A stretch of 64,000 bases of DNA from Cyanidioschyzon merolae (lineage: Eukaryota): the NCBI GenBank assembly GCA_000091205.1, contig AP006490.2. One strand, 5' to 3'. Both the position numbers and the translations under genes were made by a program. Below the pieces are notes generated by a model that did no database searches, had not been told where the DNA came from, and saw only the letters and a program-made list of their open reading frames with translations. Below are positions 1 to 52,830 of the stretch, piece by piece. Within the stretch, counting starts at the first letter, position 1, and each line of letters starts with the position of its first letter.

Positions 1-2260
1 ATGAAAGATGAGAGTACGACGAGATGGTAGTGAACGCCTGTCTTCTTGGACATATCAAGGACCCCTACGAGCAAGAGACGCAAAAGGCCGTCAGAAACCG
101 TGTGGAGTCGTACTCCAGGAGTGTTAATTACGCCTCTTTGGGACTGATGTATATGGCGAGGGAGATGTATCGCGACGTCACGCACATCAAAATATTCGAG
201 ATTCCGGAAGAGTTTTTCAACAAGACCTTTATTGGTGACCTAATATTTGGCACAGGGTAAATGTCGATGAGAAATGAGCGATTACATGCCCTCCACGAAC
301 ATCACTCCAACTACCGCTTCAACGGTACTCGATAGAGGGGTGACTCGCGTATTTGCGAATACGGGGCGATCAAGTCCCTCACGAACCTAAAGACCCATAT
401 GGCCATGAACCTGGAACGCTTCATGAAACGCTCCAATTTTGCTCTCTACTTGGGCGTCTCACACTGGGCGAGATGGACCATCATTGCCAGCATCACGAAC
501 GATAGTAAGAATGGACAGGAGATCGAATTTGTCGACAAGAAGACATCAACCAAGAGCACGAATGCAGCTTCTGTGATCCCTGCGGCTGCTCAAGAGCACC
601 GTGCGGTCCTGGGGCTGGTCAGCCCAGCAGAATAGGTATCAGATATGGAAAAAGATATTATCCCCTCATCCTGCGCTATTTCGTGTTCCTGAACCGAGAA
701 TTCGAACGCAAGGCCGAACTGCAGATGAGTAGGGGGAAAATAGAGAGTCGGCGAAACGGATGGCTGTGTTTCCGGAGAGGCGCTTCAGCGTCGTTGCTCT
801 CGGCGGCGTCAAGTCACATTTTGTGACAATCGACGCCAGCGACATTCACAACGTAATGCTGGAGATCAGTTCGGAGTTAGATGTAAGCGGGGAGGCATCT
901 ATTGGTGGAAACCTCTAGACTTCTTGGAAAACTATATCCGACTTCAAACGTCTCAATAAGGGCAAGAAAAAGATATTCACGGGGATAACCGAAAGCGATG
1001 GAGTACCCGTATGTGCACACTATCGGCTCTTGAAGGCGGATCGTCCAGTTCCGTCTTCGGCTTCGCACTCGGCGAAGCATGAAGAAAAGAAGGATGCGGA
1101 ACCTGCGACGCAGGAGGTGCAGGAGACCGACTTTGTCGTTGATGCGGCGAAGCATGAAGATGAGAAGGAGGCGGGTCATGCGACGCGAGAAGTACATGAG
1201 AACGACGTTGTCGTTGGCGCGGACCCCAGAAACACGAATATTATAGCCATCGCAGCACCCAAGCGCGCGGAAGAGGCATTGAAGGCAACTTAAGTCAGAA
1301 AGACATGCGTCTTTTAAAGCTCTCGAGAGCGAGATACTATCGAGAATCCGGTATGATGAATGCGAGGAAGAAAATCGAGATGTGGAACGAAGGAATGAAG
1401 GACCACCTGGAAGCTATGAGCGAGGTGACGAGCCGCGGAGCGGACTTTCAGACTTTTCTGAAATTCATGGAAGTTCGCGCTGCTCATTGGGAGGCGCTGT
1501 GGAAAGAGTATACAAATCGCCGGTGGGCTCCTCTGCGTGTGAACCTGTATTGTGGGAAGCGGCGCGCGCTCGCGAACTTTTTCAATCAGTTGAGCGCCCT
1601 GAAGGAGCACAAGAGTCAGAGGCTCGTAGTGGCATACGGAGCAAGGCGCTGGGCGTCGAAAAAAAGGTGTGCGCCATCTCCAACGACACGAGCGTACAAG
1701 GAGTGCGCATACCGTTTCGTCACGATACCGATAGATGAGTTCCGAACGACCAATACACACCACCAATTGGGGTGTAAACGTCAGAGATTGGAGATGAAAA
1801 GTGCCAGCAGACCCCTGAGGATATAAAAATGTTCGGAGCGCTGACGAAAGAGCAAGTGGAAAGGAGGACGAAAGTTCGTGGACTACTTGCACTAGTGAGT
1901 CCAACTACCAATGGCAAGAAACGCATGCAGTTTGTGAATCGAAACTTTAACGCCGCTATCAATATAAGGAAATGTGCGGTGATGGAAAGAAGACCTCCGG
2001 AGTTGACAAGAGAATATTTTGTTGGACAACCGCTTAAGGTAGGATTATATGAGAAAAAGTTGGAACCAGTAGTGGGTGGCCGGTCGAAAGAGACTGGGAG
2101 GCGTCTGCACGTTAGTTGGAGACGTCTTGTCTAGGGCGGCTTCCTCGCTACTACTGTCCACCGCCGGCAGCAACGTTTTTCTTTTGAAAGGCGTTCGCTG
2201 TCGCTGTCGTGGCCTGCACAGAGCGAGCGCTCAGGATATTCTTCTAGCAACTAAGGTGTC
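1..2260 (+). mobile_element. Fanzor/TnpB-like element, family 1, copy 1 (5' part lies before window start; coding capacity decayed)
   Basis: Consecutive + strand ORFs 24..260, 399..635, 1030..1293, 1305..1826 and 1829..2134 together form one broken protein. The same protein is seen in the copies at 15.5-18.0 kb, 50.2-52.2 kb and 45.8-46.6 kb. The ~120 bp after the stop (cgctgtcgctgtcgtggc) is shared with copy 2, so the element probably ends near 2260. Confidence 0.7.
24..2134 (+). pseudogene. TnpB/Fanzor-like RuvC nuclease remnant (frameshifted)
   Basis: RuvC-I-like NDVVVGADPRNTNIIAIAAPK is at 1030..1293. RuvC-II/Zn-finger region QRLVVAYGARRW...IPIDEFRTTNTHHQLGC is at 1305..1826. RuvC-III MQFVNRNFNAAINIRKC is at 1829..2134. 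Several stops and frameshifts separate the pieces. Confidence 0.7.
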
Positions 2261-2386
2261 CTGGGTTGAAAGCCTGGTATCCTGCGCAGTCAGAAGTACT
2301 TTTACTGGCACGTGATGATTGGAAGCAGTGGAGCTGTGCTCCGGGGCTTCCAGGTTTCGACTTCGTGATTCAGAGCCAGCTTCAAA

Positions 2387-5300
2387 ATGCTTCACTATGA
2401 AAAGACTGCAGCGGCGGAGATTCTGAGAGGCGGTAACAGCCTGGCAGTGTTCAGTCGCGGCCTAGACTTAGGTTCTCTCGTTGCCATCGTTGCAGCGGAA
2501 AAGCTTCTGCTAAGCGAAGGGAGACCTATTTTGGCACTCAACTTCCCGAAAACTGTTTTTCAGCGACTTGGCCGTCTGCTAGCGACGCACCCTGCAAAAT
2601 TCCCGATCCACCTGCTCCCAAGACATGTGAGTTCCAGCGTTTCAGCGGTTGAACGCTTCGAAGTCTACGGATGTGGAGGAATCATCGCTGCCACACCGCG
2701 AACTTTGGCTGTGGACCTTCTTACAGCAGTATCTCAGCTGGGTGATCACGGGGCAAAAAAAGTCCCCACGCTGAGTTTTCTGGGTATTCTGATTTATAAC
2801 GCACATGAAATCTCAGAACATCGAAGCGAAACTTTTGTAACGCGTCTTTTTAGAGAATACGTAGGAAGATGTGAACTGGAGGATACCTTCATACACGCCT
2901 TTAGTGACGCGGCACCAGCATTGTGCCGCGGATTTCACTCAGCAGAAAAACTGATGCGCCTTCTCGGACTCGAAAGGTTACTGCTTTATCCTCGTTTTCA
3001 CGTTGATGTCGTTACCTCCCTTGAGCACAAGACAGAAAATCCACAGAGCTACGTAGATGGAGGTTATGGGACTCATTCCTCATCGAGCGCGGGAATAGAG
3101 TTGCTGGAATTGCATCAGCCTATGACTGCACTGATGAAAGCCATTCAGGACGAGATCCTTGTGCTCATGCGATCCTGCTTTTTCGAATTAAGACGCAGTT
3201 CGCCGGCCGCGGAACTAGATGAGAGTGATTTGAGGGTAGCGGCTACCAGTAGGAGCATCTTACAAGCCGCCCAGCGCATCGGGCAAGAATGGCGGCGATT
3301 GAATTCTCGTAGCAGGCAGCTGTTGCAGGATATCCAGAACCTGAATAGCATTCTTTCGAGTCTGCTGGACGATGACTGTGTCACATTTTTGGCATATTTA
3401 GAGTCATTGAGGGATACACAAGGAGCGACCAGTTTGTGGATGGCGATGGAATCGGCGCAAAATCTGTATAGACTGGCCAGGGAGAGAGTCTTCCGAGGCA
3501 CCGACACTGGGGGAGACTCCAAACTAATGGGAATGCAGGATGCAGCGCTTGACCTACGAGCCAGCGAGACTGGTGAGTTACCGTTCGAATTCAGCCAGAA
3601 GCTTGTCTGTCCGGAACCGAACAGCAAATGGGAACTTTTGAAAGAGTTACTTGATGAAGTTGTAAGTATGCTCATGGGTCATCAGAGGCATGGAAACGTA
3701 TCGGACGCATCGACTCGTCGAGTTCTTGTTCTGGGGAGAGAGCCCTGCACTATTCAGTTTCTCGCCGAGTATCTCCACTATCGTGAAGGCGCTTTCGACG
3801 CATTGCATCGACGACTGCTTTTGTATCTTGGGACGAAATCCGGTGGAAAAGCCCGTGAGTCTGTCAGACCGACGACGGCAACAATGTCGAAAGCGGTGCC
3901 GTCACTTAGGGTCAAGTCAGATGCCATAGATGCCTCGCAATCCTCGTCGAACGCGGAAAGTGAGCACTCGAGCGCTTGTACTGATATGCGACAACACGCA
4001 CCAAATCAGAGGATCACAGCAGAACACGATTCCCCTGGGCAGAAATTCGGTCACCTACAGGGCGATGCCGCAGGGCATGCATCCCCCCGCGAATCAGCGT
4101 CGGATAACTACAATTCAGCTCCCGCGCATGCCAGTAGTGCCGTGTCGCAGTGTGCAGATGCAGCGCGTGTAGAGATTTTGCTCAAATCCTATGGCAGGAG
4201 ACAGAGCAGCACGGGCGTTGAAAACCTCATCGGACCCTCCACCATACTGCCTTTCTTGCTGGATTCGCAACCGTGTTCAATTATTATGTTGGATCCTACC
4301 CTGCAACACGTCCGAGAAATCGAAGTATACCAAGCCGCTTACTCGAGATTTGCAAAGATCCGGGTCTATGCAGTATTTTACGAAGAATCCCCCGAATATG
4401 AGCTATATTGTAATGCAATAGCAGATGAGAAGCACGCATTTCAAACCTTGATCCGCCATAAGGCGTCGATGGCCGTTCGACTCGATCAGAGCTCTGCCGT
4501 GGCTGTACCGGATACTGGGCCCGAACGCATTTATTGGCCACTTTGGGCGGGATCCCTTGCGAAGGCGGATAGACCTTCGCCCTCGTCTGGACGTCCCCAG
4601 ATTCTTGTGGATGTACGAGAATTTCGCTCGACGCTTCCTGGTTGTCTGTATCAAGCGGGATTCGAGCTGCTTCCTCGGACCCTGAAAGTAGGGGATTATG
4701 TACTCACACCGGATATTTGTGTCGAGCGCAAAAGTATCCCGGATCTGACGAGTTCTTTGGCGTCTGGGAGACTTTATACGCAATGCCAAGCAATGTGTCG
4801 ACTATATAGATACCCGTTGCTGATGATCGAGCTCCAGGAAGATGACATCGGGAGCACGGGAGCGAAAGCACATGTGACAAATCTGTTCGCGCCTAGTCTC
4901 TCCTTTCAGGAGAATTCCTCGCATGGTCCTGCCACGGGAATCGGGAAACTGTGCCTACTGACAATTCATTTTCCTCGTCTACGCCTACTGTGGTGTCGAG
5001 GTCCCCAAGCAGGTGCCGAAGTGTTTGGCACATTAAAAATTGGGGAAGCGGAACCGTCGGGTGAACCGACGGGCCAGATTTCAGGCGAATCCGAAGCGAC
5101 CGAGGACTCATCCGCAGAAGCTTCACTTTATTCGGTGATGAATGCACGAGACGCTTTCGCTATGCGTCCTTTTGACATGCTTCGTTGTCTGCCTGGCGTC
5201 GAGAATGCAACTGTGTTTGCGCTCATGCGCCAGTTTCGAACGCTGACGGATCTGGCGAACGCTGAAGCTGATAATATGGCGAAGCATTTCGGGCCGACTC

Positions 5301-5971: not shown

Positions 5972-6400
5972 ACCGGCGCATACTCTAAAGCTTGGATCCC
6001 TTTTCACACATCCTCAATAGCGGACTCTACGGGCTTTTTCTGCGACTGCTTGTTCTCCCCTCTCTTATCTCCTGCATTAAATACGCCGGTCTATCCCGTA
6101 CCTCCAGCTCCGTTGACTGCAGACGAAGGGTGTTGATAGCAGCAACAAAGTCTTCATTTAACCGTTGCTGAATGTCGTCGATGCATTTCATACAGAGGCG
6201 GTAGTTGCGATCTACGTATCGCTTTCCATTTTCAATTTCTTTTATACAGCCCAAGTGCGCCCTTCTCGGCGAAAACAGTCGACTGTGGTTAGCTGATCCC
6301 AGAAGTCCGCGACATGTCTGCGCGACACCCTGTAGCGCGTGGACGCTCGCACCATCGCTCGGATTGCACCCTAGACGAGTCCATGAGGCGCTCATCGATG
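5972..6400 (-). mobile_element. family 2 TnpB-like element, 3'-terminal fragment with conserved terminal module
   Basis: ORF 6027..6395(-) ends ...YRLCMKCIDDIQQRLNEDFVAAINTL, which is a Zn finger plus the RuvC-III DxNAAxNI motif. On the + strand, 5975-6085 (gcgcatactctaaagcttgg...cttttcacacatcctc...ctgcgactgcttgttctcccctctcttatctcc) matches the terminal module of the copies at 10.2, 23.4, 32.4 and 52.2 kb. Confidence 0.55.
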
Positions 6401-14726: not shown

Positions 14727-15521
14727 CTACTTTGGAGACCAGGGGCGCAGAGCGCTCCAAGACTTTGGATCGGAAACAGCAAACTCTAAAAGACAAGCTC
14801 CAATCGCATGGCCATCCTGTGGAACCTTAAGGCTAGCCGCTGCACTCCAATACGCGTCAAGTTTGAGTCTGCCCCTTTCAAGACTTGAAGAAAGCAGCGC
14901 GGGCATGAGTTCGGTCGTTGCGCCAAACTCAGGATGCCCCTGCAGGCACAGAATACGATCTTCGGGAAGCAAGTATCCTTCCACAGGACAAGATGGACTC
15001 GACGCCAATAATACAGCACCTGGCGGAAGTACCTGCACTTCGTCAAAGTGGAAGTATATCAGACAAACCGTGTCCGCGTCCAGGGTGCCCCCCGAGAGCC
15101 GTCGGAACAGCTCGCGTCCACGAGCAGTCAGCTGCGTCGAGACGCAACCAACCTCCGGGCCGGCGGCTACGGACCCGCACTTTCCACCCAGTGCCTCCGC
15201 TATGACCTGGTGGCCAAAACAGATCCCCACAAGGGGAATTCGACCACGTGCTCTTTGGATATTGTGTTTGAGCGTTTGAATCCACAGGTCTTCATCGTAC
15301 GCTGAGGAAAAAGAACCGCTTATGAACACGGCCCTCAGAGAGGAATCATCGAGATCAGGGAACTCACCCCGTGCTGCCTCATACCGTGTGTAGACCAAGT
15401 TCTTCTGTCCTGTTTGTTCAAAAAGTTGGACAAAGGCATCGAAAAACCCGCTGCAGCCTGTTCGTTGTTTCACAGCTTCCGGCAGCGTTTGGCAGTCAAC
15501 AACAGCTATTTGATCTATCAT
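14727..15521 (-). CDS. class I glutamine amidotransferase-like protein (stand-alone GATase1 domain)
   Basis: A 264-aa ORF with the nucleophile elbow GICFGHQ and the His/Glu motif LQGHPEF. It is convergent with the cyclin gene, and the two stops are 10 bp apart. Confidence 0.8.
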   Translation of the reverse strand: MIDQIAVVDCQTLPEAVKQRTGCSGFFDAFVQLFEQTGQKNLVYTRYEAARGEFPDLDDSSLRAVFISGSFSSAYDEDLWIQTLKHNIQRARGRIPLVGICFGHQVIAEALGGKCGSVAAGPEVGCVSTQLTARGRELFRRLSGGTLDADTVCLIYFHFDEVQVLPPGAVLLASSPSCPVEGYLLPEDRILCLQGHPEFGATTELMPALLSSSLERGRLKLDAYWSAAASLKVPQDGHAIGACLLEFAVSDPKSWSALRPWSPK

Positions 15522-15544
15522 ACATAAACGAAAAGATGCGGAGA

Positions 15545-17960
15545 ATGCCTTGCACTGTACTGTTCTCTAGACACTTCAGGACGCCCTTTGCGCGTCGACA
15601 CAAGCGGTCGTGCCCGCGAGCAGCAGCGTACCCCAGTGTGTGAGGGCGAGGCAACGAAGGTTTCAACGGAGCGAAAACGTTTCGCGACTGCAGAGTACAC
15701 CAATACCGACGTACAGACGCCTCCCCGTCTTTTTCGACCGGCTGGCTGCCATCGGCTTCAGCTTTTCCTTGTACATTTCGACCCGGAGAGGTTCCCCCAC
15801 AAAATTGGCTCTTGTAAACTCCAGAGGTCTCCTCTCCGGCACCGCACATCTCCATATATTTGTAGCGGCGTTAAAGTCTCGATTCACGAACTCCATGCGT
15901 TTCTCTCCGTTGTGGCTGTACTCAATAATGTGAGTAGTCCTCGAACTTGAGCCCTCCGCTCCATTTCCTGTTCTGTCAGCTCTCCGTGCTTTTCTATATC
16001 CTCAGCGCTCCGCCGGCACTTTTCCATCTCGACCTGCTGAAATTTACACCCCAGCTCGTGGTGTATACATGACGTTCGAAACTCATCTACCAGTATTGTG
16101 ACAAAACTGTGTGCGCACTCCTTGTACGCTCGTGTCGATGAAGCTGGTATACTCCTTTTTTGGGAACCGAGCGCCCTGAACCGTATGCTATGATGAGCCT
16201 TGGACTCTTGGTCTCTTTGAGAGCGCTCAACTGATTGAAGAGATTGGAGAATGCATGTCGCTTCCCACGGTACAATTTCATACGCTGACGAGCTCAGCGG
16301 GGCTTTGTGTACTCTTTCCCCAGCTCCTCGTGATGAGCAGCTCGTGTTTCCATGAACTCTAGAAAAGCTTGAAAGTTCGCTCCGCGGCTCTTCACATTAC
16401 TGATCACTTCCAGGTGCTCCATCGCTCCTGCGTTCCGTTTCTCACTTTTTTCCTTGCATTCATTATTCCCCATTCTCGGTAGTATCTCGCTCTCGAGAAC
16501 ATTAAAAGACGCGTATCGTTTCAGCATAAGTTGCCTTTGGTACCATTTTTGCTACATTTGGGAGCAGGGATGGTCATGATGTTCGTGTTCCCAGGGTAAA
16601 GGACTACGACAACGTCGTTCCCCTGCAGCTCCTGCGTCGCAAGATGCGCCTCCTTTTCTTGATGCCTCGCCGAGGACGAAGCTGTAGACACAATAGGACG
16701 ATCTGCCTTCAAGCGCCGATAGTGTCCATACATGTATACTCCATCGCTTCCGATCATCCACGTGAACACCTTTTTCTTGCTCATTTTGCGACGTTTGAAA
16801 TCGAAGATATATCTACAAAATGACTCACGGTTTTCGCCAGTGAACTCCTCCCTGCTTACATTGAACTCCGAGCTGATCTCCCTCATGATACCGTCATGGG
16901 CTGCGAAGTCGATTGTCACAAAGTGCTACGTGATCTCGCATATCGGAACGACATGGGAGCGCTTCCCCAGAAGCGCAGCCTTCCGTTTCTCCGACTTTTT
17001 TCCCACAACCGGCTCCATTTCGGCCTTGCGTTCGAGTTCTCGGTTCACGAACGCGATGCAGCCCAGGATGAGAGGATAAAATCTATTTTCATCTTTGTTT
17101 CATATCTGATACCTATTCTACTGGGTTGACCAGCCCCAAAACTGCACGTTGCTCTTGAATAGTCGCACGGATCACAGAGGCGTCATTCTTTCCTATGTGT
17201 GATGTGTTCTCGTCGATGAATTCGATCTTCTTTTCATTCTTACTATCGTTAGCGATGCCATCGACGAGGGTCCATCTTGCCCTGCGAGATACGCCCGGGT
17301 AGAGTGCAAGTGTGAAGCGTACCATGAAGCGTTTGAGGTTCACGATCATGTAGTTCCTCAGGTCCGTGAGGTACTTGATCTCCCCGTAGGAGAAAATATC
17401 CGCGTCACCCCTGTGTCTAGTACCGTCGAAGCGGAATACGGGGTGAATTTCGTGGAGTGCACGTTCTTGCTCATTTCTCCTGGAGGTTTCCCCAATGCCA
17501 AATATCAGTTGACCAATAAAGGTTTTGCTGAGAAACCCTTCCGGGACATCGACTGTTTTGATGTGCGGCACGTAGCGATACATCTCCCTCGCCATATGCA
17601 TCAGTCCCAAAGAAGTGTTACGAACACTGTTCGCGAAGGAAGCGACACGGTTTCTGATGGCCCTTGCATCTCTTTTCTTGTACAGATCCTTTATACGGCG
17701 TTGAAGACAGGCTTTCACCAGCATCTCGTCGCACAGTTCTCTTTCGTGTAGCGTTTGACGTTGGGCCTCCTGCTTCTGCTTCTTTGTGTTCTCGTGTTCC
17801 GCTTTGCTCGGCACAGTTTTTCGTTTTTTTTCCGGCGGCCAACGACACCGTCCCTTTAGGATATTCTACTTCCATGTCTATATCCATGAGCGAAAGTGAG
17901 GCCGCCGAATAAATCCTCTGCAGATAGAACGGATGATGTCCTCTTTCTCATCGAGCTCGA
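15545..17960 (-). mobile_element. Fanzor/TnpB-like element, family 1, copy 2 (most complete copy; frameshifted)
   Basis: Minus-strand ORFs 17113..17814, 16521..16919, 16294..16527, 16087..16281 and 15663..15896 are collinear with copy 1. The 3' non-coding tail 15545-15662 shares cgctgctgctcgcgggc with the copy 1 tail. The 5' boundary is approximate. Confidence 0.75.
15663..17814 (-). pseudogene. TnpB/Fanzor-like RuvC nuclease remnant (about 700 aa equivalent, at least 4 frame breaks)
   Basis: RuvC-I is NDVVVVLYPGNTNIMTIPAPK. RuvC-II region is PRLIIAYGSGRS.... RuvC-III is MEFVNRDFNAATNIWRCAVPERRP. The N-terminal 233-aa piece is intact here and matches the two pieces of copy 1 (24..260 and 399..635). 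Confidence 0.75.
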
Positions 17961-20937
17961 TCATACGCACAACGGACTCCCTCTCCGCAAATAATCACAC
18001 ACGCTCCGACCGGTTCGCCCGAAGCAAGTCTCACTGACAGAAAGGAATCGACTTCCCTGTGCTTCAGACCGATCGCAACGTTCCAGGAAAGCTGTTATTG
18101 CGAATTCGATGGAAGACAGCCGTGGGTGAACTAGGGCTCTGTTTTTGTGACAGTATTCGATTGTTTTCAGGACCACACGAACAAACTGGTGAGAAATGAA
18201 GGCGCCCGTTATGGCTTCTATCGTCGCTTTTGCCTTTCATACGATGAAAAATCGGTGGTTTCCTACCACGGACCGAAAGCACGCTTTGAGAAAGCCGGCT
18301 CTATGGCGCAAAGCGAATACATTTGTTTCTTTCAGTGCTCCCCACCCAAATGAGTACTGTGGTACGACTGGCCAGAAGGGGAAAGGCAATCTTTCTGGCA
18401 CTGTCCAGTGAGGAGTACATGCTACAGGCAATTCGTCTACGATCTATAAGGTACGTTGCATCGTGATTTCGACTACATAACATACACCGCAGCGAGGATG
18501 AAATAATATTCTGTTGAAAGAACATAATCGAAGTCTCTGACTGCAGAGGTCTTGATTTGGTTTGAGATACAGGTAGCAGCCCCTATTCCAGATAAGCAGT
18601 GTACTGCGTGATGCCGTTCTCCTTGCACCTTTGAACGGGATGTTTTCGTCTTGATGTTCTTCGAAACATGTGCAGCAGCCAGCCCCGTGTCAGATCAAAA
18701 AGAGAGCACTTCACTTCTCTCTCTATTCCAGCTTTCCGATATTACCTAACTGCTTTACATGAACACTCTTGACATCCAAAGTGCAGCAACGCGCTGTTAT
18801 GGGTTCATACGTAGTTCTAGGCATCCAGGCCGTCTCCTGGACTATCTGCCTTAGGGCTTTGCTCCTGGAAATCTTCGCGTCACTGAAATTATGATAAATC
18901 CGCAACGCTTTCGAATAAGCGTTTGTAAAAGAATCGATTTCATTATCCAATTCATACGTTCTAGTCTCCAAGCTTCTCCTTTCCTTCCATGCAGCATGCT
19001 CGAATTTCAGAGTTTCCAAGCTTCGATCTCTCCCTTTCAGGGCGACTCGTGAGCGCGGCAATTGTCGCTGCTGGGTTGACAACGGAAAATCAGCCGACGA
19101 CTTTCCTTGAAAAATTCATTCCAAGCTCATGCCGAATGTTGACGTCGCTTCTTACGCCTAATTATTGGTACCATAATTTAGATAAATTGTCGTCTGTTTG
19201 TAGCTATCGAAGAAAGGGGCTTCCACAATAGCATGCTACCTGTTATGCGTTATGCTCCAAGTTGATTCCATGTCTTCTTCTTAGCTGGAAAGCGTCTTAG
19301 AATCGGAATGAACGCTTCCCAGTTATCCCTTCTGGTAGAGCGGGCGCCAATGATTTCAACGAAGGTAGCATAGACGAATCGAAATTCTTCGACTTGTCGC
19401 CCAAACTGGATATTCCTTGCCATAGGTATTCGATCATGGACACCATCGCACTCCACAAATAATCTGTCGAATGAGAGAGCATGCGCTTGCATGTGCAGCA
19501 CACAAAGTGCTCGCCGTTTGGATTGCCTAGAACAAGTCCACGATCGTACGGGTAAGGCACCGGGAGCGGAAGCAGTAATGGGCAACAAGGGTGAGCCTTC
19601 TGTACCCCTCAAGGACATCCAACGAGAAAGAGTGCAAGCGATCACGCGACGCTTTACTGCGCTCCGAGGAGTAGGTGTGGTGCGCATATAGGAGCACCTG
19701 ACAACAATGAAGTGGCACCGCTTCGAAGCGCTCACCAAGGCTCTATACTGGAAACATGGACATGTTTAGCGAAGCGTAGATCGCGTTTTTGGCTGGTGCA
19801 TCAAATGCATAGAGAACAGCCGGCAACTGCGAAAATGGGATTTTGATGCTTTTATCAATATCAGTTGATTGCTGGCAACGGAACCGGAGGGAATAGAGAG
19901 ACCGGCGTGTGTAGAGTTGGAAATAAGAGAGAGAAAAAGGAAGCAGTCGTGGGAAACCCCGCAAACGGTGGTGTTGATGAAGACCGAAGAGACTCAAATG
20001 CTAGTGTGTACACCAGAGTCCGATTCGTGGACTTGTTTCTTTCATTTTGACATGGGTGTAGGACTCTCCTGCCGAATACCGCACCCGTCGCAAACAAAAT
20101 ACGAGAGTCGGTACGCGCATTCAAAGTGCACGTGGTGCTGCGAATCTCCGATGCTCCCCTGTTCTGGAAACTCTATGCCCTGAAGCCTGGACGGCAACCT
20201 GGTTGGAAACCTATCTGTCACGAACAACCTTGCGAACTACGTTTAAGCCCTGCAGCATCACAGAAAAGCTGACTCAAATCCGAGCTGGAAACGTTGCACT
20301 CGGTGCAGTGTTGCTTTTTCAGGGTAAAGCGCGAAACAAGGTCGCGTGTGGGAGTTCACCAAAACGAACAGTATTCCATTCGAAAAACGTGCAAGTCGTT
20401 GCCATGTTGCTTGCAACAACACGTTGTGGCGTCTTTTCGGTTCGTTGCGCATAATCGCCGGTGTTAAGCGAGTTGCCTGGGTGAAGAGCGGAAATGTAAC
20501 GCGATACTAGCAACGATGCGTATCCCGTGAACGAGAGGCAGGTAGGAGCCCGCGGTCTCAAAGAGCAAGGCGATTTCCAAAATCAGGCCAGAACGATTTC
20601 TTCCAGCCAAATCTATCAACAGGCGAGAGCTTCATTGGCCGGGTGGGTATTAAACTCAACACACAACGGCCTCCGTGATCCACGACTCCCGTTCTGCATT
20701 CCTCGGAGGAACACTGGCTCGATCGATCTCGTGAGCCGCAGTGTGCTGTGCGCGAACGCACGCCGCTTCCGGTAACGCTGCCGGTAGGCCGATTTCGGGC
20801 GATGAAGCGGGCGCTGCGAACGCTTGCAACTGCGCCCACTTCTGACAGCTCTCTCGGCGCGTGAAAACTCGGGGCGACTTCCGGTCGCGATCGTACGCTT
20901 CAAGAGAGCCTGGGGCTAGAGGAGAAGCTGTAGACAC

Positions 20938-25811: not shown

Positions 25812-27089
25812 GTGTGATCAACAAGCCAGAATTGGCTCAGTCCCGTCACGGCAATACTGTTCTGCGCAGTACTTGGCCCTCAGGTTCCCCGTGAAGAGTC
25901 TCTCTCTCCACGGTCACGCGTCCACCGTGAAGGCTGCCGCACAACTCGCACCAACGATAACGCTCTGTCTACGCGTATCGTAGTCGGCTGCGCGCGAGCG
26001 ATGTGACCGAAGCGCATGGAACAGCATCACGTGACATTTCACGGCGAGCCAGGCAGGGCCTGCGGATCATGCGATGCTCGCATTCCGCACGCGCACGCAC
26101 CTGGCACCATCGTCTCGAACCCGTCAGCGCAAAATGGTAGAATCGCGCTTTCCCGTAGCCTGAGACATGCCCTGAGGAACAGAGCGGCATCATCGATGGG
26201 TCCGGAAGAGACGGCCATTACAGTCGAACTTTCTAGAAGATAGCCGTCGACAAACATTGGGGACTGGCTTTTATGAGGAACGGTGCCGCTTGCACTAACT
26301 GGTATCTGGGCAGTCTGCATGTGCGCAGCGCGCTTGAGGCGCTTTCATGCGTGCTGCAGAATGGGGCATAATGCCTGCTGTGAGGGGCGAATGCACGGAA
26401 TGGGATCAATGAGGCTGGCAGCGTTTGGAACGTTTCGGGTCAACGTTGCGGTGGGAAAGTCGAACGAAGCGAGCATGGCAGGTATGCAAGCGATTCCGAA
26501 AACCCAATCATGAAACGGTTCCGAAACCGCGGCAGTCGATTCAGTGGGTACTCGATGCCTGTGGGATCGCGGCGTTCAGAAGCATCGACGGACAGCATCT
26601 GATATGAACGCGCATCCTGACGCTGTTTCGTCAACGTATTAGAGGATTGATATAGGGCCAACACATCAAGGACCGGCCTCATGCGATCAAATGAGGCTGC
26701 ATTGCGGAACCGATCCCTGTCGCGAACGGGATGGCTTTCGGATGAACGAACAGAGGTAGCGCACCCCCTGCGCATTCTATCAAGCTGCAAAGTGAGACAC
26801 GACAAGCAAAGGCACGCAAACAATCAACCTTGATGTAGGCGTCGTCCGCAAACGCCCGCTACAACACTTCTACGGATCACGTGCTTTTGAGAATCAAGGC
26901 ACGGTAGAAAAGCGAAAGCTTTCGTTACCGTCTTTGCACAGGGTCGCTGCAGCGCGCCGCCTGTTATGCTGTGTGGACGATGGCCCCGGGGGCTGGCGAT
27001 CGATCCAATTTTTCTTCATTGACAAAACGTTTACCTAGACCAGCGATCTCCGTTTATGCGCTTTTTCCTTTCTTTTTGTGTTTTTTCTC

Positions 27090-27300
27090 AGCGCACGGTG
27101 AAGTATCCATCAAACCCCTACCTCCAATTTACATTACCTATACTTCTTCTCGGATATACTGGTCGTTTCGTACGTCCAATCGTGTGCCTAGTGCCTGCCG
27201 AAAGCGACAGCAATAGCGCCTACAGCGCCGGTGCGGTCGCTGCACGGAGACAGAACGGCGTTGCTGTACCACAGAGCGCGTCGGCTCGAGGATTGATCCG
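27090..27300 (+). repeat. dispersed repeat (family 4), second copy at 49380-49580
   Basis: The block cctccaatttacattacctatacttcttctcggatatactggtcgtttcgtacgtccaatcgtgtgcc...ggcgttgctgtaccacagagcgcgtcggctcgagg here matches cctccaaattccattatttatacttgctttcgggtgtactggtcgttttgtacgttccatcgtgtgcc...agcgttgccataccgctgagggcgtcggctcgagg at 49.4 kb. By eye this is about 75% identity. Confidence 0.55.
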
Positions 27301-32381: not shown

Positions 32382-33170
32382 ACAAGCGCATACGATAAAG
32401 TTTGGGTTTCTTGCCACTGTCATCAGCACTAGCCTTTGGGGGGGGGGGGGTTCTCTGCACCTGCTTCCTTTTCCGCTCTCATATCTACGGCTCGAAGTAT
32501 CCCGATCTCTCGCTACCTTCTAGCGCCGTTCTCAGCTGTCCTTAGATATTGATTTCGGCGTTAAAGTCCCGACTTTGCCGCTTCCAACTGTTGTTCACGC
32601 AATGCATACACAGGAAAAAGTTGCAATCTACGCTTCGTTCGTTTTTTATCATCTTCATACACAGCCTGGTTGCCCATTTGCAGTGTTGAAAATTGACTGT
32701 GATCTGATGTTCGCTTGTGTCGAGCACAACGTCCGCACCGAGAACCGCCCTGTGGCACGTAAACGCACGCTTCGTCGCTCAGTATCTGCCCTTGATGGAT
32801 ACAGAAGGCTTCTATCGATGCTGCGCTACTTTCCGCACCCGGTTTCGTACCCTGGGATCACGTGCTTCTTTGTGGAGACCCCCTCGACGAGTACGCTGTC
32901 CGCTGCAGAAGCGAAACGCTATTCTACTCGATAGAGGATTTGCGGAATGCAGTGTTGTCCGTTGAGCCACAAGTACCGAGAAGAAGATTCAAGCGGGGGC
33001 GAAAGCCAGGAAATTTCGATTCGTTTATGCTCCCTTTGTGCAAAGAGTTGACGCGCTCCCCACTGGAAGTGGTTGATGGTGTGGCTGAAGTCTCAGACCA
33101 AGACCCTTGCCGTGCAAAAAAGAGGGTCAGAAAACCTCCGGGCGCATATCCCGTGGCGGGGATCATGATG
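32382..33170 (-). mobile_element. family 2 TnpB-like element, longest fragment (C-terminal ~200 aa equivalent + terminal module)
   Basis: ORF 32542..32727(-) ends ...HCKWATRLCMKMIKNERSVDCNFFLCMHCVNNSWKRQSRDFNAEINI (Zn finger + RuvC-III). Upstream, 32924..33166(-) contains LLLGTCGSTDNTAF, which is RuvC-I-like. The + strand 32384-32530 carries the conserved module (gcgcatacgataaagtttgg...cttgccactgtcatcagcac...G13 run...ctgcacctgcttccttttccgctctcatatctacggctcg). Confidence 0.55.
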
Positions 33171-34177
33171 GTGCGGATTGCCGTTTTCTCGATTGGTACA
33201 GAGATGGTGGTAGATTTTTCGGAGCGATCCGATTATTTGGCGCGGAAAGTTCAGTAAACATTGGGTACGAATGTGCGAAGCAGTTGTCAACGGCCGAGGT
33301 CGCGTTATGTACGTCCTCATTCCAGCGGCGCGGACTGCTGTGCCTACGAGTCGCCTTGACACAGGCAGATCAATATTTTACAGAACGCTCGCTTCGGGCA
33401 TGCCAAATGTGAGGAAAGGAAGAAGATTGGATGCTCATGTGCTTACTAATTGGATGATGATTCGATTACTTTAAAAGTCCCTGTTCGAGAGCGTCGCAAT
33501 GCACCTTGATTCCGGTGACCAAACGAATTTCAGCAACAGAACATCCAAGGGGCCATTTCCAAAAAGCAACATACAGACAGGAAACCTAAAATTACGTACG
33601 AATCCCTAATCACCTATTAATACACTTCGCGTGTCCACTGTTCAAGAAGAATGTTCGGAATATAATGAAAATTCAACAACAGAGCGAGCAGTTCAGTCTT
33701 CCATTGTAGCCTGACAAATATGCACTGCCTACCAATCGATCACCAGCGGATACATTTGGGAGAAAATAGTCCGTTCGTGCGAACTGAAGTTTGCCGAGCC
33801 CGCCGTGAGTGCCAACCACGACACCTGCAGCGCCACCGCTGGCGGAGCATGAAGAAAAAACAGCTTTACCCGTTCCCTGTCGGACTTTGATTCGACAAGT
33901 GCAGCGTTTGGTTGCACATTTACGCGCTTGGAGGTCATTGCGCTCGCTCGTACCCTTCATTTTTATAAACGAACCTGGTACCCGTCCACAACTCGCCGCT
34001 GAAGCCGTGCGACGCGTATCGCAGCCGATGGCGGCATCATGTCCAGTCCGCGCCGGGCGTCTGGCGCGCAGGCGTCGCTCCAGCCGCTCGAGGCGCTTGC
34101 CAACAGATTGAGGCCGAGCGCTGAGCTCCGAACTTCAGCCGCAACAGCGATACGACCTTTGGGCTCGTTTACGAAAC

Positions 34178-40351: not shown

Positions 40352-41596
40352 TACCTATCGCCTGCAACAAGCAAGCCTTCTTCAAGTGCACGATCTTTTT
40401 TCTCATGAATACCCTTGGTCACGGTAATTCGCGACCCTGGAGGGACAAGCGAAGAACTCGACGTCGTCTCATGAGGACTTTTTACCATCTCACGCCGGAA
40501 GTTTTCTGTATATGTACCGTCAAATAATCGATTCCATTCGAAGCACAAATCCTCCCCTTTTTGTGGCCAAAGAAGACACTCTATTCGACAGCAACAGAAT
40601 GATAGATTTCACGGGAAATGCTCCCAGAGGTCCCTGGATCTTCTGTTTCCATGGAACGGCGCCTCGGATTCGGAACTGAGCTATCGCAGCGATCGCATCC
40701 AGTGGGGACCGCATAAGCGCTTTGCACGATGTGAGCATAGACGGATCGAAATTTCTTGACTTTTACCCAGAATGAAATTTTTTCAGCTACTTGTTCCTTC
40801 GTGATAATCATCACTTTCCACAAAAATCCTCTATTGAATCGAACAGCTTGCGCTTTCATGTGCGGCAGGTAATGTTCTGGCGGAGAATATAGCCCCGGAA
40901 AGCCCATTAACGCACGATACAGCATCGGGCGAGGAAACGGAGGAGCGTATCCAGAGAACCTTTCTGTACTCTTCTATTGCATGCACGGAGTGGTATAGCA
41001 AGCGTTCACGTGCCAACGGTCGATCCCGGAGAAAAACGAGGAGTCGTGGACAAATGATAAAACCTGAAGACAGTCAAGTGCCAACTGTGCAAAGGCGCGC
41101 ACCGGGGTTGCATACAAATAAGTTGACAATGGCAAGCGATGTGTAGATCGCAGCTACCACCTGTGAATGAAATGCGTTGACAACTGCGGGAATCAGCGAA
41201 ATCGGGAAATTAACGCTGCTACCAACATCCTTCGAATGCTGACTACTCGGCGCACGATAAAACCTATGAAACGAGCAATATATCCGAGAAGAATGGCTTA
41301 TGGAACTTGGAAGCAGAGCGTGGTATGATGGATGGTTCACTGTGCGCTGATATCAAGCGCGCTGTTGTGGAACGATGGCCTGCGTCAACGTCTTGACAAA
41401 TTGATACGAATAACAGCTCGCGTTGTACGAACAGGAAGCATTCACTTGTCAGAGTGAGCGTGCATGAGTTGCTCATAGCCGCACCGGCGTCAAACGGGGA
41501 AGAATCGCTCTTCGCTGAACTCGAACACCTGGCTGACAGACCCTACAGCAAAAGAACGTACAACTGAGACGCGCCCCGCGTGAAACTGTTTCTGCT

Positions 41597-43808: not shown

Positions 43809-45779
43809 CTCGCGGAACATGCAGGTTTGATGCAAAGTGGTAACCGCTTCCCTTGCTACGAAAAACCATCTCGCAAACTGGAATTTTCTGGTTAGGTTCA
43901 ACGATCGCACGGACTCCAAAAACAGCTGACGACTGAGTGCTGTTGCCTCTGACCTGAGCGGCGCCCCGTTTCCCCTCCGGCGATGCTGGCGGAAGCTTGT
44001 ACTGAGACGCTTGCACCAAGATTCACCCCAGAGGCGCGCAGCATCTGCGACCAGACCGCAATAGCGCGTCTACAAACTCGAACAGACGGAACTAAGAACT
44101 GTTCGAAAAGAAGGTCGCGGGACACGCCGTCTCTGACGTCTCCGGGCGTAGCCGCCGCTACCCAGAGCGCACGCCGTCTGTTCACGCTAACAAGTCGTTG
44201 CAACTTGTGTATGATGCCGCAAACGGTTCCACGGCATTGAAGGCCTTTGGCAAAGGACGCGGTAAGATCAGCACCTGGAGCATTGCTGTTGAAAAAGAAT
44301 TCGCATTCCGCCCGGGCCTATGAGGAGCATTGTCCAGGAGACAAGCTGCGACGCCGGGTTCGCCACAAGACCCCGGCATTGAAATATGCTCTACTCGGAA
44401 TAATATTTCTGGAATACCTCTACCTGGATACCATTTCTGTGCTTGTTTGTATCTCTCGAAGGTATTCAACAAAAGGATACATCCTATGCACTGGAGAAAT
44501 GTTGAGCGAAGACATTATGCTGTTAATGGAAGTTTGCTACAAAGCGCTCGCTTGTCCAAGACAGTCATTCGAGCGATAGCAGGAGGATGAACTGCTCTTT
44601 TCGCAGTCCTAATCCTGAACGTCCTGCACCAGAACGGAACTCATGAAAATGCTATCTATGGGACTGTATAGTGGTCAATCCGCTCCACTCTATTCCTTCT
44701 GTGGAAAATGCTTCCGAAGAAGACAACGGATATGAAATATCCGCACCATTGATACGAACGACAGTGAACAATTGCTGATGGATAAAGAGAAAACCACGCT
44801 TTTTGGAAGACCGCTGCGCGTTCAAAAGCACACGATCGATTTCGTGCTGAAACGCGAACGCTTATATCATGCAAAGCTAATGATCGTCTCACCTGATGAG
44901 ACTTCATTCGGGAGGAATGGCATCTTTTTATGTGAGTCCTCCAAAAAAGGGAAACTGATGTTCGTGAAGAAGAGACAAGCGAGCATGCCGACAACTTCAG
45001 CATTAGCGGAGATTCTGCCGTGCGGTCGACTATAAATCGCCAAACGAACAGGACCATTGAATAATTCATGCTGCGTCGAAGCACTTTGCGGCCTGTACAT
45101 TCCACATTCTTCCGTCCTGCTCTTCCACAGCTTTGCTTTCCATGACTAAAATATGTTCATCGATTACACAGCTGAGATTCGTGCTGAGCTGCTCTTTTTA
45201 CCAACCTCTGATCCTCTTTCAAATCAGTCGAAGGCGCCTCCTTTTTCGAACGGCATTTCTACGCGCACAGATCGATAGACGACTCGTCCGTATCTTTGAT
45301 ACCCATGATCCTTCATAGGTCGTTCTCTACAGTCTCCAGCCCTGACCTGCTCTGCTGCTTCTCCGTGCGTGGGCATGTGGGAGCGGAGAGCCGCGCTGCG
45401 GTCCGTATGCATCTTCGCTATGGAAAGGTGGCGACGATGTACTCGAGGAACGCCAGATACGTGCAAATATAGAAAAGGCAAGTTTCGGTCCCATCGGCCA
45501 TCCAGCGCCTCCGAATTAGGCGAAAAAGAACGAATATCGAGGTTTTTGACTACAAAGATGCCACCACGCCAACTGAAGAAGCTGTGACCAAGGAGCAGAT
45601 CTCTGAGAACGAGTATAAAGCATTCAAATAACTTCGCGGAGAGCATTTCTGGAGCTCCTTCATGCTCTCTCGTTTAGAGGCCGGATAGCGGGAAGAATTT
45701 TCCAAGGACGACGGAGACCGATGGAATTTCAGTCTGTATGGAACTTGCGAAAACCTAAGCCTGGAATGAGCAACGAAAC

Positions 45780-46600
45780 CCGTTTCCAACCGTTCGGGGT
45801 AAGGGAACAGAAATGCATCGTGGGGCGCGTCGTAGCCGTCTCCGTAGGTCTTAATCAAGACGAAGGAGCCCAAATTCTCAACAGAATGCGTACGAATCCG
45901 TTCAATTTATCCAGGCCTCGTTATAATCGGGAGGCGGCCATGGTCACCACCCTGAGGCATACTAACAAAGGGATGACGGCTTCAGCATACGAGTCTCGAC
46001 GCTCTGAGCACCGCTTCGAGAAGCAGAGACGCCTTGCACGCTTCTTTCCCGATAGTGTACATGAACTTCCATGGGGCTTTTTCGAACGATGTATGGCTTC
46101 GGTACATAAAGGTGTGCTGGGGTCAGCGACGGTTTCGGGTGTACGGCGGTAAGAGGCGTGCATTCGCCAACTAGTGCAATAAGTCGAAGAGGAATACAAT
46201 GGATAATTCGCGTCGTTTGGCGGTAGCATACGGTGCTGGTCGTGCTGGAGCGCGCAATAGTTGCGCTCCTGCTCCTTCGACGAGAGCGCACAAGGAGTGC
46301 AGGAATCATCCTGCGCGATTCCAATCGATACATTCGGTACGACGAACACGGTTCATGAGTACGAGTACGCACTGAAACAGTTGGATAGGAAGAGAATGAA
46401 CCAGGGACAGACGCACGAGATGTTGTGCGGTCAACTGCATGGACGTCAGATGGAGAGGCAACCGATCACGAGTTACTTCCTAAGGTTTGATGCTACAAGC
46501 GGCAATGCGCAAAAGCTCATCCCGTGCCGATACTTCAGCGCCTCGATTGACATCCGGAAATGTATCGTGCTTTCGGCGCCTTCAGTGGCTTAGAATCAAG
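45780..46600 (+). mobile_element. Fanzor/TnpB-like element, family 1, copy 4 (highly degenerate internal fragment)
   Basis: The frame around 46195 reads RRLAVAYGAGRAGARNSCAPAPSTRAHKEC (copy 1 has QRLVVAYGARRWASKKRCAPSPTTRAYKEC). ORF 46261..46593 has IPIDTFGTTNTVHEY (RuvC-II IDEFRTT) and PCRYFSASIDIRKCIV (RuvC-III NRNFNAAINIRKC). ORF 45721..46152 has GRVVAVSVGLNQDEGA, which is RuvC-I-like. Confidence 0.45.
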
Positions 46601-46913
46601 CGAACGTTCGAGGGACTACTTTAGTATTGAGTATGAGCATTTTACTGGAACGCGTATCGCCTCTGATGAAAAGAAACAGTTGTCAGGAGAGAATGGACTG
46701 CATTCTAGACTGGAGGAAGACGCTGGAGCGATACGGTGCAGATATCCAGCAAAGCCACAGCGCCGTACCTATCCACGTAAAACGATTCTCCCAAGCAACT
46801 GGTAAACTATAATAGGGTTCTTTATTGTGCATAGCTGATTATATGGTTCTTTTAAGGAAGACTTTTCAAAAAAGGTTTGCAAACATCACGAATGTAGACT
46901 GTTGAATTATGAA

Positions 46914-48710: not shown

Positions 48711-49379
48711 TTTTAGAGATCCGTCGCTTGAGAAACAAAGGAACGCGGCACACTATGAAATCCGGCTACTTGGAAGTGCGGATACGAACGATCAAGCGTG
48801 CAGAGAGATAGATCGGTGCGCTGCAGAGCTGATCCACGCTTCTCGGAAGTGCTGAAACAAAAGATCAAGCGTACGATGAACCAGATCACTGCCTCGCGGA
48901 CCTGATACACGCACAACTAGCCAGATCGAGCGCTACTCAAGTTCTGCACAGCCGTTGACTCTTCCAGTACCTTGGAGACACCAGGTTTTCAAAGCGCTAA
49001 CAAAGTTGCAGTTTAGCAGATCTGAAGAAGATCACAAAATCTCTCAACAAACGTATTCGAATCAGGATTACCAGGAAAAAACTGGTCACCGATAAGTCAC
49101 GATTCCGCGTACCAGGTGTGGCGTTCACGAATCCGTATCTATTGTATGCGCTGCTGCGGCGTCATCGCCGAGTGGCATCTCGCCGTTCGGTGAGGGATTC
49201 GTGGAGGCGTAGCGGTGGACGCCTGCGCTCGCCGCGCCTCATCGTGCGGCCTCCAGAGCGCATTCGATTCGCGATGCTCTGCGGCGTGTTTTGATTCTCT
49301 TCCGATGGACAGAGCGTCGTCGCCATTGACCATGGATTCCAGCTTGCGGGATGGATATTTTCATTCGGGAAAGCGTGCA

Positions 49380-49580
49380 TCATGCTGCTGCACCCGACCT
49401 CCAAATTCCATTATTTATACTTGCTTTCGGGTGTACTGGTCGTTTTGTACGTTCCATCGTGTGCCGAGAACTTGACTGCACCCGCCTTAACGCTTATACC
49501 GCCGGAGCAGATGCATCACGGAGGCAGAACAGCGTTGCCATACCGCTGAGGGCGTCGGCTCGAGGCGTGGTGCAACTGAC
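49380..49580 (+). repeat. dispersed repeat (family 4), copy of 27090-27300
   Basis: See the 27090-27300 entry. ORF 49351..49689 reads PLFILAFGCTGRFVRSIVC...ASRRQNSVAIPLRASARGVV. ORF 27056.. reads PILLLGYTGRFVRPIVC...AARRQNGVAVPQSASARGLI. Confidence 0.55.
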
Positions 49581-50159
49581 TTGGAATCTGGATTCAATAT
49601 CATTCTGGGCTCCTGAAAGTTGTGCTGATAGACCTACTGCCTGCGGCAGCGCGAAGCGATACACTAGGAGTCCACTGCGAACAGTGTGACGCTTAGGCGC
49701 AGCCCATCTGCTCATAGTTCCTGAGTGAACTGCGTTTCGGACATGCTGCTCAGATCTCGCCACAGCACCTGCCTCTGAGGGAGCGTATGAAGAATTCGCC
49801 TAGCAGACTCGTCCGGCTCGCTGGACCTTACGCCTGTAGGGTAAACTTTCGACATTACGGAGAGCTTTTCGTGCTTTTAACGCTTACCGTAGAGGGGCAA
49901 GGAGATTGTTATCTCGTTTCGAGTTCGTGGTCAGCCACTGTTCTTTTTATGCAGCGCGGTCGAGACACGCACCACCAAACCGAGCAGGAATGAGAAACGA
50001 CGCGCATCTCGCGGTTGAAGGGATATGCGATCCTGATCATTATCGCGTAGTTCTAAATTACAAGATGCGTCCAGGCTGAAGCCATGACAAAGTATAGTGT
50101 TTCATCTCAATTGTTTTTCGACCATCAAGTCAGTGTATTCACGTGATTTTTCGGGGCTT

Positions 50160-52220: not shown

Positions 52221-52830
52221 CTAACTTAGGCGTGCTTTCTAAGGATTAGTTCTCTCCCTGCTGTCATCAACACCAGTCTTTGCGGGATGTTCCTGCGCAT
52301 GCTTCATGTTTCTCTCTCTTAGCTCCGGCTTGGGATACGCTGGTGTCTCTGTTCCCAGCAGTTCTGCTGCCAAGAGATATTGATCGTTAATCACATTTTT
52401 CATAGCCAAATTTCGCAATGTCCGGCTATTACTGACGAATTTCATGCACAGGTGCAAGTCGCGATCGACGCTTCGCTTGCCATTTCCATCGTATTGTTTA
52501 CACGACCTGTGCCGCCTCTGCACCTGTGGCAATTTGCTCCAGTCCGGCGTACCCAGATGTCGATCGAACCTTCTTCGATGGCTGCCCTGTGGCACGTGAA
52601 CACTTGCTTTAAAGATCGGTGCACACCCTTGAGAGGTACAGAAGGCTCCGCTGGATGACCTCCTACTTTTCTGTTCCAGGTGCCGTTGCTTAGGGTCATG
52701 GGTTTCGTCTGGGAGACACCCCTGGCAATTACCCTGTCCGCTGCATGCGTCATCGCGCGCTGCTCCATTCGACAGAGGATTCGTTGAACGCAATACTTGT
52801 CGTGGCGAAACTAGTGCCAAAAGGAGAATT
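52206..52830 (-). mobile_element. family 2 TnpB-like element, 3'-terminal fragment with conserved terminal module, abutting family-1 copy 3
   Basis: ORF 52239..52820(-) contains ...RSCKQYDGNGKRSVDRDLHLCMKFVSNSRTLRNLAMKNVIND, a Zn finger plus a degenerate NAA motif. The + strand 52208-52370 carries the conserved module (gctaacttaggcgtgctttctaaggattag...ctgctgtcatcaacaccagtc...cgcatgcttcatgtttctctctcttagctccggcttggg). Confidence 0.55.

Follow-up and report, generated by a model that had tools for sequence, protein, structure and literature searches.

What left the broken reading frame on the minus strand at 15705-17887 of a 64,000-nucleotide stretch of Cyanidioschyzon merolae DNA (contig AP006490.2; the whole stretch is called the window here), and can this locus or its relatives in the window still function? 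A preliminary description, made from the sequence alone, had seen four decayed copies of a TnpB/Fanzor-like element there, left behind by an old burst. This central claim is correct, and the element can be named: three of the loci are very probably fossil insertions of CMe-1A, a non-autonomous DNA element with a single gene, which codes for Fanzor1, a relative in eukaryotes of the bacterial RNA-guided nuclease TnpB; the fourth locus probably preserves the remains of an older and more diverged Fanzor1 gene.

The products of nine long open reading frames (ORFs) in the window are identical to proteins annotated on chromosome 8 of C. merolae strain 10D (a record of 739,753 bp), including XPF (BAM79736) and the PPi-phosphofructokinase beta subunit (BAM79750). 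In the paper that named the Fanzor proteins, a single Fanzor1 family, CMe-1A, is listed for C. merolae (Bao and Jurka, 2013, Mobile DNA 4:12, PMC3627910). Its consensus comprises 3169 bp and represents about 150 copies, each about 80% identical to it; terminal inverted repeats (TIRs) are absent, target site duplications (TSDs) were not determinable, and the 5' 635 bp are 95% identical to another repeat, TE-N2_CMe (PMC3627910). The element encodes a Fanzor1 of 734 amino acids (aa) in one exon and some copies still encode the intact protein, a coding capacity which Bao and Jurka regarded as unusually long-lasting for a non-autonomous family (PMC3627910). This agrees with the earlier expectation that intact copies exist elsewhere in the genome. 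Alignment of the published consensus (Additional file 2 of Bao and Jurka) to the window by blastn placed three copies, with 79.6-87.3% nucleotide identity over 2.1-2.9 kb:

3-2195, plus strand: CMe-1A copy 1, pseudogene, consensus 1041-3169, 81-87% identity (blastn)
15705-17887, minus strand: CMe-1A copy 2, the focal locus, pseudogene, 17882-15705 corresponding to consensus 905-3092 at 79.6% identity (blastn)
49324-52190, plus strand: CMe-1A copy 3, pseudogene, consensus 18-2996, about 80% identity (blastn)

Copy 1 is cut on its 5' side by the start of the window and is the only one of the three with a complete 3' end, aligned to the last consensus base (2193-2195). Copy 2 lacks all 904 bp of the 5' non-coding sequence as well as the last ~77 bp and diverges after consensus position 3092. 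In copy 3 the 5' end is nearly complete, with about 900 bp of 5' non-coding sequence, followed by an internal deletion of ~97 bp and a 3' end that is short by ~173 bp. The alignment to the consensus also moves the limits given in the preliminary description: copy 1 ends at 2193-2195 and not at 2260, copy 2 occupies 15705-17887 instead of 15545-17960, and copy 3 starts at 49324 rather than 50160, since its 5' non-coding sequence belongs to the element. A self-comparison of the window showed similarity of 15705-17887 (minus) to 3-2112 (plus) and 50220-52190 (plus), and pairwise identities among the three copies are 75.2-77.5% over 0.8-1.9 kb (blastn, E=0). They can be aligned as had been proposed, with the fourth locus left out, and their majority consensus translates, with two frame changes, to a protein of ~730 aa carrying VVGADPGNTN, VDEFRTS and FVNRDFNAATNI. 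Hence, copies 1-3 are already known as CMe-1A/Fanzor1 and have been in the literature, with a consensus, since 2013.

Relative to the consensus ORF (consensus positions 906-3110), frameshifting indels number 4 in copy 1, 11 in copy 2 and 14 in copy 3, and premature in-frame stops 5, 3 and 5, respectively; copies 1-3 are therefore pseudogenes. In a three-way alignment the stops and indels proved independent in each copy, which bears out the different breakpoints noticed before. An intact ORF is absent from all four window loci, which are non-functional, broken fossils. Two premature TAG codons are common to pairs of copies, one at consensus codon 256 (copies 1 and 2) and one at codon 354 (copies 1 and 3); some copies could have been made from already defective sources, or the same mutation could have arisen in parallel. 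The catalytic motifs and one duplication near them are located as follows:

1210-1239, plus strand: RuvC-I of copy 1, VVGADPRNTN, catalytic D kept
1731-1751, plus strand: RuvC-II (relocated glutamate) of copy 1, IDEFRTT, aligning with LIDEFRTSS of the Parasitella Fanzor1
1931-1960, plus strand: RuvC-III of copy 1, FVNRNFNAAI, catalytic D changed to N
16581-16610, minus strand: RuvC-I of copy 2, VVVLYPGNTN, catalytic D lost (GAD to VLY)
16070-16090, minus strand: RuvC-II of copy 2, VDEFRTS, intact, frame shifted
15861-15890, minus strand: RuvC-III of copy 2, FVNRDFNAAT
51381-51410, plus strand: RuvC-I of copy 3, VVGADLGNTN
51906-51926, plus strand: RuvC-II region of copy 3, GEFRMSC, E kept, preceding D changed to G
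52101-52130, plus strand: RuvC-III of copy 3, FVNRDFDAAT
1070-1216, plus strand: 75-bp in-frame tandem duplication of two units in copy 1 (Tandem Repeats Finder), a 75-nt insertion relative to the consensus

The catalytic triads read D/E/N in copy 1, lost/E/D in copy 2 and D/E/D in copy 3. The exchange at RuvC-III of copy 1 is not disabling on its own, because GtFz1 naturally has N at this position and is active, as is the D606N variant of SpuFz1 (Xu et al., 2024, PMC11423790). The duplicated unit of copy 1 sits just upstream of RuvC-I and encodes KHE(E/D)xKEA..ATxEVxENDxVV. This 75-78-bp unit (KHEEKKEA..QEVQENDFVV) is present once in the consensus, twice in copy 1 and four times in the environmental locus L001/P0001 (L001:11221-11376).

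The assignment of the encoded protein to Fanzor needed a family profile and a fold search, because single-sequence searches were empty: the stitched consensus protein of 731-733 aa, taken alone, has no match in Pfam-A or the PDB. Among 5.8 billion proteins 45 relatives were found, nearly all from metagenomes of the Joint Genome Institute (JGI). A profile built from eleven members of the family matches one PDB sequence, the Fanzor1 of Parasitella parasitica (PpFz1, 9cf0; E=3.2e-11), in two collinear stretches, and the alignment places GADPG on DPGRRD, VDEFRTS on IDEFRTSS and NRDLNAA on NRDQAAV. In an exhaustive profile search, 4159 representatives matched at E<=1e-3 and 505 at E<=1e-30. As the window copies are broken, the intact relative P0034 (699 aa, 41% identical to the window consensus in alignment A1) was modelled in their place with AlphaFold, at a predicted local distance difference test (pLDDT) score of 72.5. 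The best Foldseek matches of this model are the solved Fanzor1 structures, namely SpuFz1 (E=7e-16 to 1e-14), PpFz1 (6e-15 to 1e-13) and GtFz1 (5e-14), with template modelling (TM) scores of 0.40-0.58 and sequence identities of 11-16%; Cas12f, Cas12o and the TnpB of ISDra2 (8h1j) come next. P0034 is thus predicted to have the WED/REC/RuvC/TNB fold of Fanzor1. The CMe-1A consensus match, the profile match to 9cf0 and the fold match of P0034, the latter two from the kinds of search that had been suggested, confirm the earlier assignment to a TnpB/Fanzor-type nuclease carried by a transposon.

The active site points in the same direction. Invariant across the eleven members are the D of GADPG, AYG at the canonical site, E-F-R of DEFRT and D-x-N-A-A of NRDxNAA. 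The canonical RuvC-II position reads AYGxG, and a conserved glutamate follows ~35 residues further on, in the DEFRT that immediately precedes the TNB domain; by motif this glutamate corresponds to E541 of SpuFz1. A rearranged active site with a relocated glutamate has been described for Fanzor (Jiang et al., 2023, PMC10530073), and the aligned sequences indicate this Fanzor-type layout for the family: D, relocated E and D, with a non-acidic residue at the canonical RuvC-II position. The RuvC-II motif of the preliminary description is therefore present and conserved, but it equals the relocated glutamate and not the canonical position. A literature search found no study of a C. merolae Fanzor protein, and C. 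merolae was not found in the 2023 Fanzor papers or in the supplements of Saito et al.

To see the family beyond the window, we used the best 80 of 344 stretches from hot-spring metagenomes that encode a relative of the query; the Cyanidioschyzon populations in these metagenomes share about 99% identity with 10D. Of the 80 environmental copies, which are 74-88% identical to the consensus, nearly every one is broken. The best candidate, L001/P0001, keeps the three motifs and misses ~35 C-terminal residues. The longest apparent ORF, with 747 aa in L025, was rejected as an intact copy: its N-terminus is out of frame and its end is a read-through. Copy 2 was found at the orthologous site in 8 contigs from different hot-spring metagenomes (99.5-99.9% identical) and is therefore an old insertion, fixed in wild populations. 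Its decayed 3' end lies ~180 bp upstream of the start codon of a glutamine amidotransferase gene (14727-15521, minus strand; gap 15521-15705), and because of this short distance the remnant fills the promoter-proximal region of that gene.

How does the fourth locus fit to this family?

45690-46617, plus strand: fourth locus, eroded C-terminal (RuvC) half of a divergent Fanzor1 (protein profile match)

The match replaces the earlier limits of 45780-46600 and covers profile positions 332-659 only (best E=4.9e-24 with the family protein profile). By tblastn the identity is 41% over 102 aa, and by blastp 34% to CMe-1 (E=1e-30) and 37% to the divergent relative P0034 (E=2e-36). No nucleotide match to the CMe-1A consensus or to copies 1-3 was obtained by blastn, even at a word size of 7, and in its motifs (VVAVSVGLNQ, IDTFGTT and YFSASIDIRK) all three catalytic residues are lost. 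What had been described as four copies of one element with ~80% nucleotide identity and the RuvC motifs thus holds for copies 1-3, with RuvC-I mutated in copy 2, but not for the fourth locus with its 34-41% amino acid identity. At the DNA level this locus is not a CMe-1A copy; its sequence would fit the remains of a gene for a more divergent Fanzor1, or an insertion of far greater age. That it is a much older and further decayed insertion of CMe-1A itself, and not a distinct Fanzor1 lineage, is possible but in our view rather doubtful. The motif order and orientation are the same as in CMe-1 and the locus scores nearly as well against CMe-1 as against P0034, but it is marginally closer to P0034, has no nucleotide similarity even at a word size of 7, and lies outside the 74-88% identity to the consensus into which copies 1-3 and the 80 environmental copies all fall; furthermore, Bao and Jurka list only one family for the genome. 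We therefore prefer to regard it as the remnant of an older, more divergent Fanzor1 gene.

If the window copies are dead, their non-coding ends might still tell how an active copy would work. Only copy 1 offers a complete 3' end:

2134-2195, plus strand: 3' non-coding end of copy 1, with a remnant of hairpin H1 at 2134-2149, a spacer, and a terminal hairpin plus TT at 2174-2195

From its sequence, this segment is a candidate for the end of an omegaRNA scaffold and for the right end of the element. The spacer between H1 and the terminal hairpin contains the conserved ACTACTGT(A/C)CAC, and the hairpin reads CGTTTTTC-TTTT-GAAAGGCG, followed by TT. A comparison of 32 distinct copies, mostly pseudogenes, revealed that the stop codon (GTCTAGGGCG) is followed by H1 (GGCG..CGCC) and that a conserved ACTACTGTACAC spacer comes directly after it. 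Within H1 one pair covaries (GC 13 vs. CG 12) and the neighbouring pair, read on the sense strand, is G-U in some copies and G-C in others. For the three-helix structure, 83% of the cells are paired, compared with 37-64% if the partners are slid, and its covariation score was reached by no shuffle. An alternative pairing, CGCC(A)/(T)GGCG, showed covariation not above shuffles and was dropped for H1. No Rfam family matches the window. Besides the version found in copy 1, the terminal hairpin occurs as CGTCGTTCGA-CTT-TCGAACGGCG; both versions fold, with stems of 10-11 bp, and TT follows in 28-29 of 31 copies. Beyond the TT comes a tract rich in G/T and poor in A, which has faded into the background composition at about +16, and the ~15 nt after the hairpin have a loose three-base rhythm. 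The published consensus may stop 2-16 nt short of the true right end, or the tract may reflect a target or guide preference. In addition, 12-16 nt of 3' flank are common to small groups of copies (window 2134-2212; loci of alignment A3). Overall, the 3' end is compatible with an omegaRNA scaffold ending at the element boundary, and a role of the palindromes at the DNA level is equally possible.

A mechanism for an active CMe-1 can be drawn from the characterised Fanzor1 proteins SpuFz1, GtFz1 and PpFz1 (Saito et al., 2023, PMC10432273; Jiang et al., 2023, PMC10530073; Xu et al., 2024, PMC11423790). The protein would be imported into the nucleus via its K/R-rich N-terminus and would bind an omegaRNA from the 3' end of its own element, which would consist of the end of the ORF and ~60 nt of non-coding sequence with the hairpin last. 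The omegaRNA would run about 15-20 nt past ...GAAAGGCGTT, and roughly 15-20 nt of flanking sequence would serve as guide. The complex would then cut double-stranded DNA beside a short target-adjacent motif (TAM), and this cutting would help the element to persist or spread. The window loci carry out none of these steps, because they are broken.

Several results weigh against this explanation. The consensus protein and its homologues stay below every Pfam-A threshold; the homologues give sub-threshold matches to Cas12f1-like_TNB only (E about 0.2) and carry as Pfam label just a domain of unknown function (DUF), PF26935 (DUF8286). No strictly intact copy is present among the 80 best environmental loci. 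The omegaRNA is putative: folding of the 3' end gives modest z-scores (-0.9 to -2.2), the RNAalifold consensus of the 32 copies is weak (-6 kcal/mol), and the pair counts mix selection with shared descent, as most of the compared copies are pseudogenes. RNAalifold did not recover the terminal hairpin, since the two versions of this hairpin do not line up with each other in the aligned copies. Moreover, the family is without a known mobilising enzyme; no transposase gene adjoins the CMe-1A copies examined and no TnpA (Y1 HUH) was found in or near them.

The last of these points concerns the C4 zinc finger, which is part of the defining Fanzor/TnpB motif of Bao and Jurka (PMC3627910) and is present as CxxC...CxxC in SpuFz1 (NUC domain) and PpFz1. 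In our alignments it is absent from the CMe-1 family between RuvC-II and RuvC-III. After RuvC-II, the CMe-1 segment contains only H,H,C,C in TSYTHHELGCTLQRVEMEKC, and the relatives P0042-P0045 have no CxxC pair in this segment. Of the 60 close representatives with both flanking motifs locatable, 47 have at most two Cys in the segment and lack an early CxxC. Most close members of the clade (proteins P0133-P0281 and P0042-P0045) are without the finger and show a conserved (V/L)RGLLWC.ST motif in its place, and the CPKC...C...C positions are replaced in the family alignment to PpFz1. The Cys cluster reported earlier after RuvC-II is consequently an H-H...C...C arrangement instead of a C4 finger, and relatives do not conserve it. 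The nuclease activity of this finger-less clade is a prediction. C. merolae grows at about 42-45 °C and pH of about 2. A resurrected CMe-1 would therefore be a thermotolerant Fanzor1, apparently without the zinc finger.

With no mobilising enzyme at hand, it is worth asking which unit has moved. The following features of the window bear on the 5' end:

49324-49952, plus strand: TE-N2_CMe-like 5' module of copy 3, consensus 18-645
49954-49970, plus strand: left-end palindrome GCGCG-GTCGAGA-CACGC of copy 3, at the start of the part common to all copies
27117-27295, plus strand: solo TE-N2_CMe-like fragment, consensus 84-260, 83% identity (blastn)
41245-41332, minus strand: solo TE-N2_CMe-like fragment, consensus 70-159, 78% identity (blastn)

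The part common to all environmental copies begins at about consensus position 646 with a palindrome, GCGCTC-GGT-GAGCGC or GCGCG-GTCGATA-CGCGC. Upstream of this point at least four different repeated modules occur (environmental loci L010-L089, e.g. L020:2220 and L033:2215); one is TE-N2_CMe and another holds the reverse complement of the TE-N2 terminus and then an A-run. G(C/A)AT directly precedes the left palindrome in several module contexts. Modular 5' ends are also seen at L018:2215-2300 and L012:1604-2261. In the window itself, a TE-N2-related terminus near 27041 (region 26990-27295) starts with a T-run and continues with CATTGACAAAACGTTTAC; because of this T-run the TE-N2-like repeat ends in an A-run on the other strand, like a retroposon tail.

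These observations hint that the moving unit might be a core of ~2.5 kb (consensus ~646 to 3169 plus TT) with a palindrome at each end, and not the 3169-bp composite, a proposal that we consider unlikely. On this proposal, held with the same reserve, the core would have G(C/A)AT before it and TT plus the ~15-nt G/T-rich tract after it, and would be joined to at least four repeated 5' modules. The hints come from environmental pseudogene copies at filled sites only, and they fit a composite that moves as a whole or a 5'-truncated retroposition as well. If the proposal is true, a red alga would harbour an IS605-like, hairpin-bounded element carrying a zinc-finger-less Fanzor1, spread by a single-strand transposase or by Fanzor-guided cutting and copying into other repeats. 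Replitrons (HUH transposons), considered as a class, are reported absent from red algae.

Retroposition deserves attention, as the 3' ends are mostly complete and the 5' ends vary (consensus 1, ~646-690, ~869-905 and ~1215), with copy 2 beginning exactly at the ORF. We nevertheless judge it very unlikely that CMe-1A was amplified via an RNA intermediate and the reverse transcriptase of a retrotransposon, with Fanzor having no part in the spread. The lack of TIRs and of determinable TSDs (Bao and Jurka, PMC3627910), the adjoining TE-N2-like repeats with their A-run on one strand and the G/T-rich, A-poor 15 nt that follow the 3' hairpin and somewhat resemble a simple-repeat tail would be in line with it. 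However, the Fanzor-sense strand has no poly(A) tail, many copies share one sharp 5' boundary at the palindrome (~consensus 646) instead of spread truncation points, and the terminal TT and hairpin are position-specific.

The missing transposase, together with the long-lasting coding capacity noted by Bao and Jurka (PMC3627910), would also suit a domesticated host Fanzor gene with paralogues, so that the window loci would be dead paralogues and not transposon copies. This appears extremely unlikely for a family that has ~150 copies in 16.5 Mb of genome and matches 344 stretches from hot-spring metagenomes, with nearly all copies being pseudogenes; its insertions are all intergenic, the dispersed copies share their termini, and the non-coding ends are conserved beyond the ORF. 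We therefore keep to the reading of copies 1-3 as fossil insertions of a DNA element.

The window loci themselves matter little, because they are dead copies of a family published in 2013, and how Fanzor works was established in 2023. Modular 5' ends and conserved terminal hairpins, as found in the environmental copies, refine the published boundaries of CMe-1A; together with the absence of the zinc finger they are modest leads, not discoveries. Nonetheless, a copy-rich family without a known transposase in a genome of 16.5 Mb is a compact system to ask what Fanzors do for their elements.

Two further repeats were noticed in the window. Another old, dispersed intergenic family, unclassified and with 64-74% identity, occupies 32747-33541, 40518-41177 and 52435-53385 as well as 6043-6265, 19725-19980, 41092-41234 and 52264-52489; one of its copies lies directly downstream of Fanzor copy 3, and it has relatives in L001, L010 and L075. 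A 47-bp tandem repeat of 5 units (94% matching) is located at 62028-62259, downstream of a 2226-aa ORF (54971-61651).

In comparison with known systems, the closest is CMe-1A as published by Bao and Jurka (2013): copies 1-3 come from the same organism and represent the same element with the same single ORF, the divergence is as reported, and the TE-N2_CMe-like 5' part is found in copy 3 as described. The three are truncated or broken individuals, and nothing essential differs. Beyond the published description, which covers the TE-N2 version only, the environmental copies join at least three other repeated modules to the core.

The characterised Fanzor1 proteins SpuFz1 (8gkh, 9ceu), PpFz1 (9cf0) and GtFz1 (9cer) have a fold like that of the CMe-1 relative P0034 (Foldseek E=1e-13 to 1e-16), the same D...E...D layout with the glutamate in DEFRTS just before TNB, and likewise a basic N-terminus; as in CMe-1A, the gene occupies the 3' end of a mobile element, next to a short non-coding tail that is structured or, in CMe-1A, putatively so. 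In contrast, the CMe-1 family is only 11-16% identical to them and has ...HHELGC...VRGLLAL(V)ST..., without four Cys, in place of the zinc finger. Furthermore, the characterised proteins ride on identified transposon superfamilies, whereas CMe-1A is unclassified and known from sequence.

IS200/IS605 elements with TnpB, such as ISDra2, encode a RuvC nuclease of the same superfamily as CMe-1. They are without TIRs and TSDs, as CMe-1A is without TIRs and determinable TSDs, palindromes lie near both ends of the CMe-1A core as they do in these elements, and in both cases a guide RNA would be expected to come from the 3' end. Unlike IS200/IS605, the CMe-1A copies examined have no TnpA (Y1 HUH) gene and reside in a eukaryotic host, and compared with TnpB the CMe-1 protein is twice as long, with a large REC region and a relocated catalytic glutamate.

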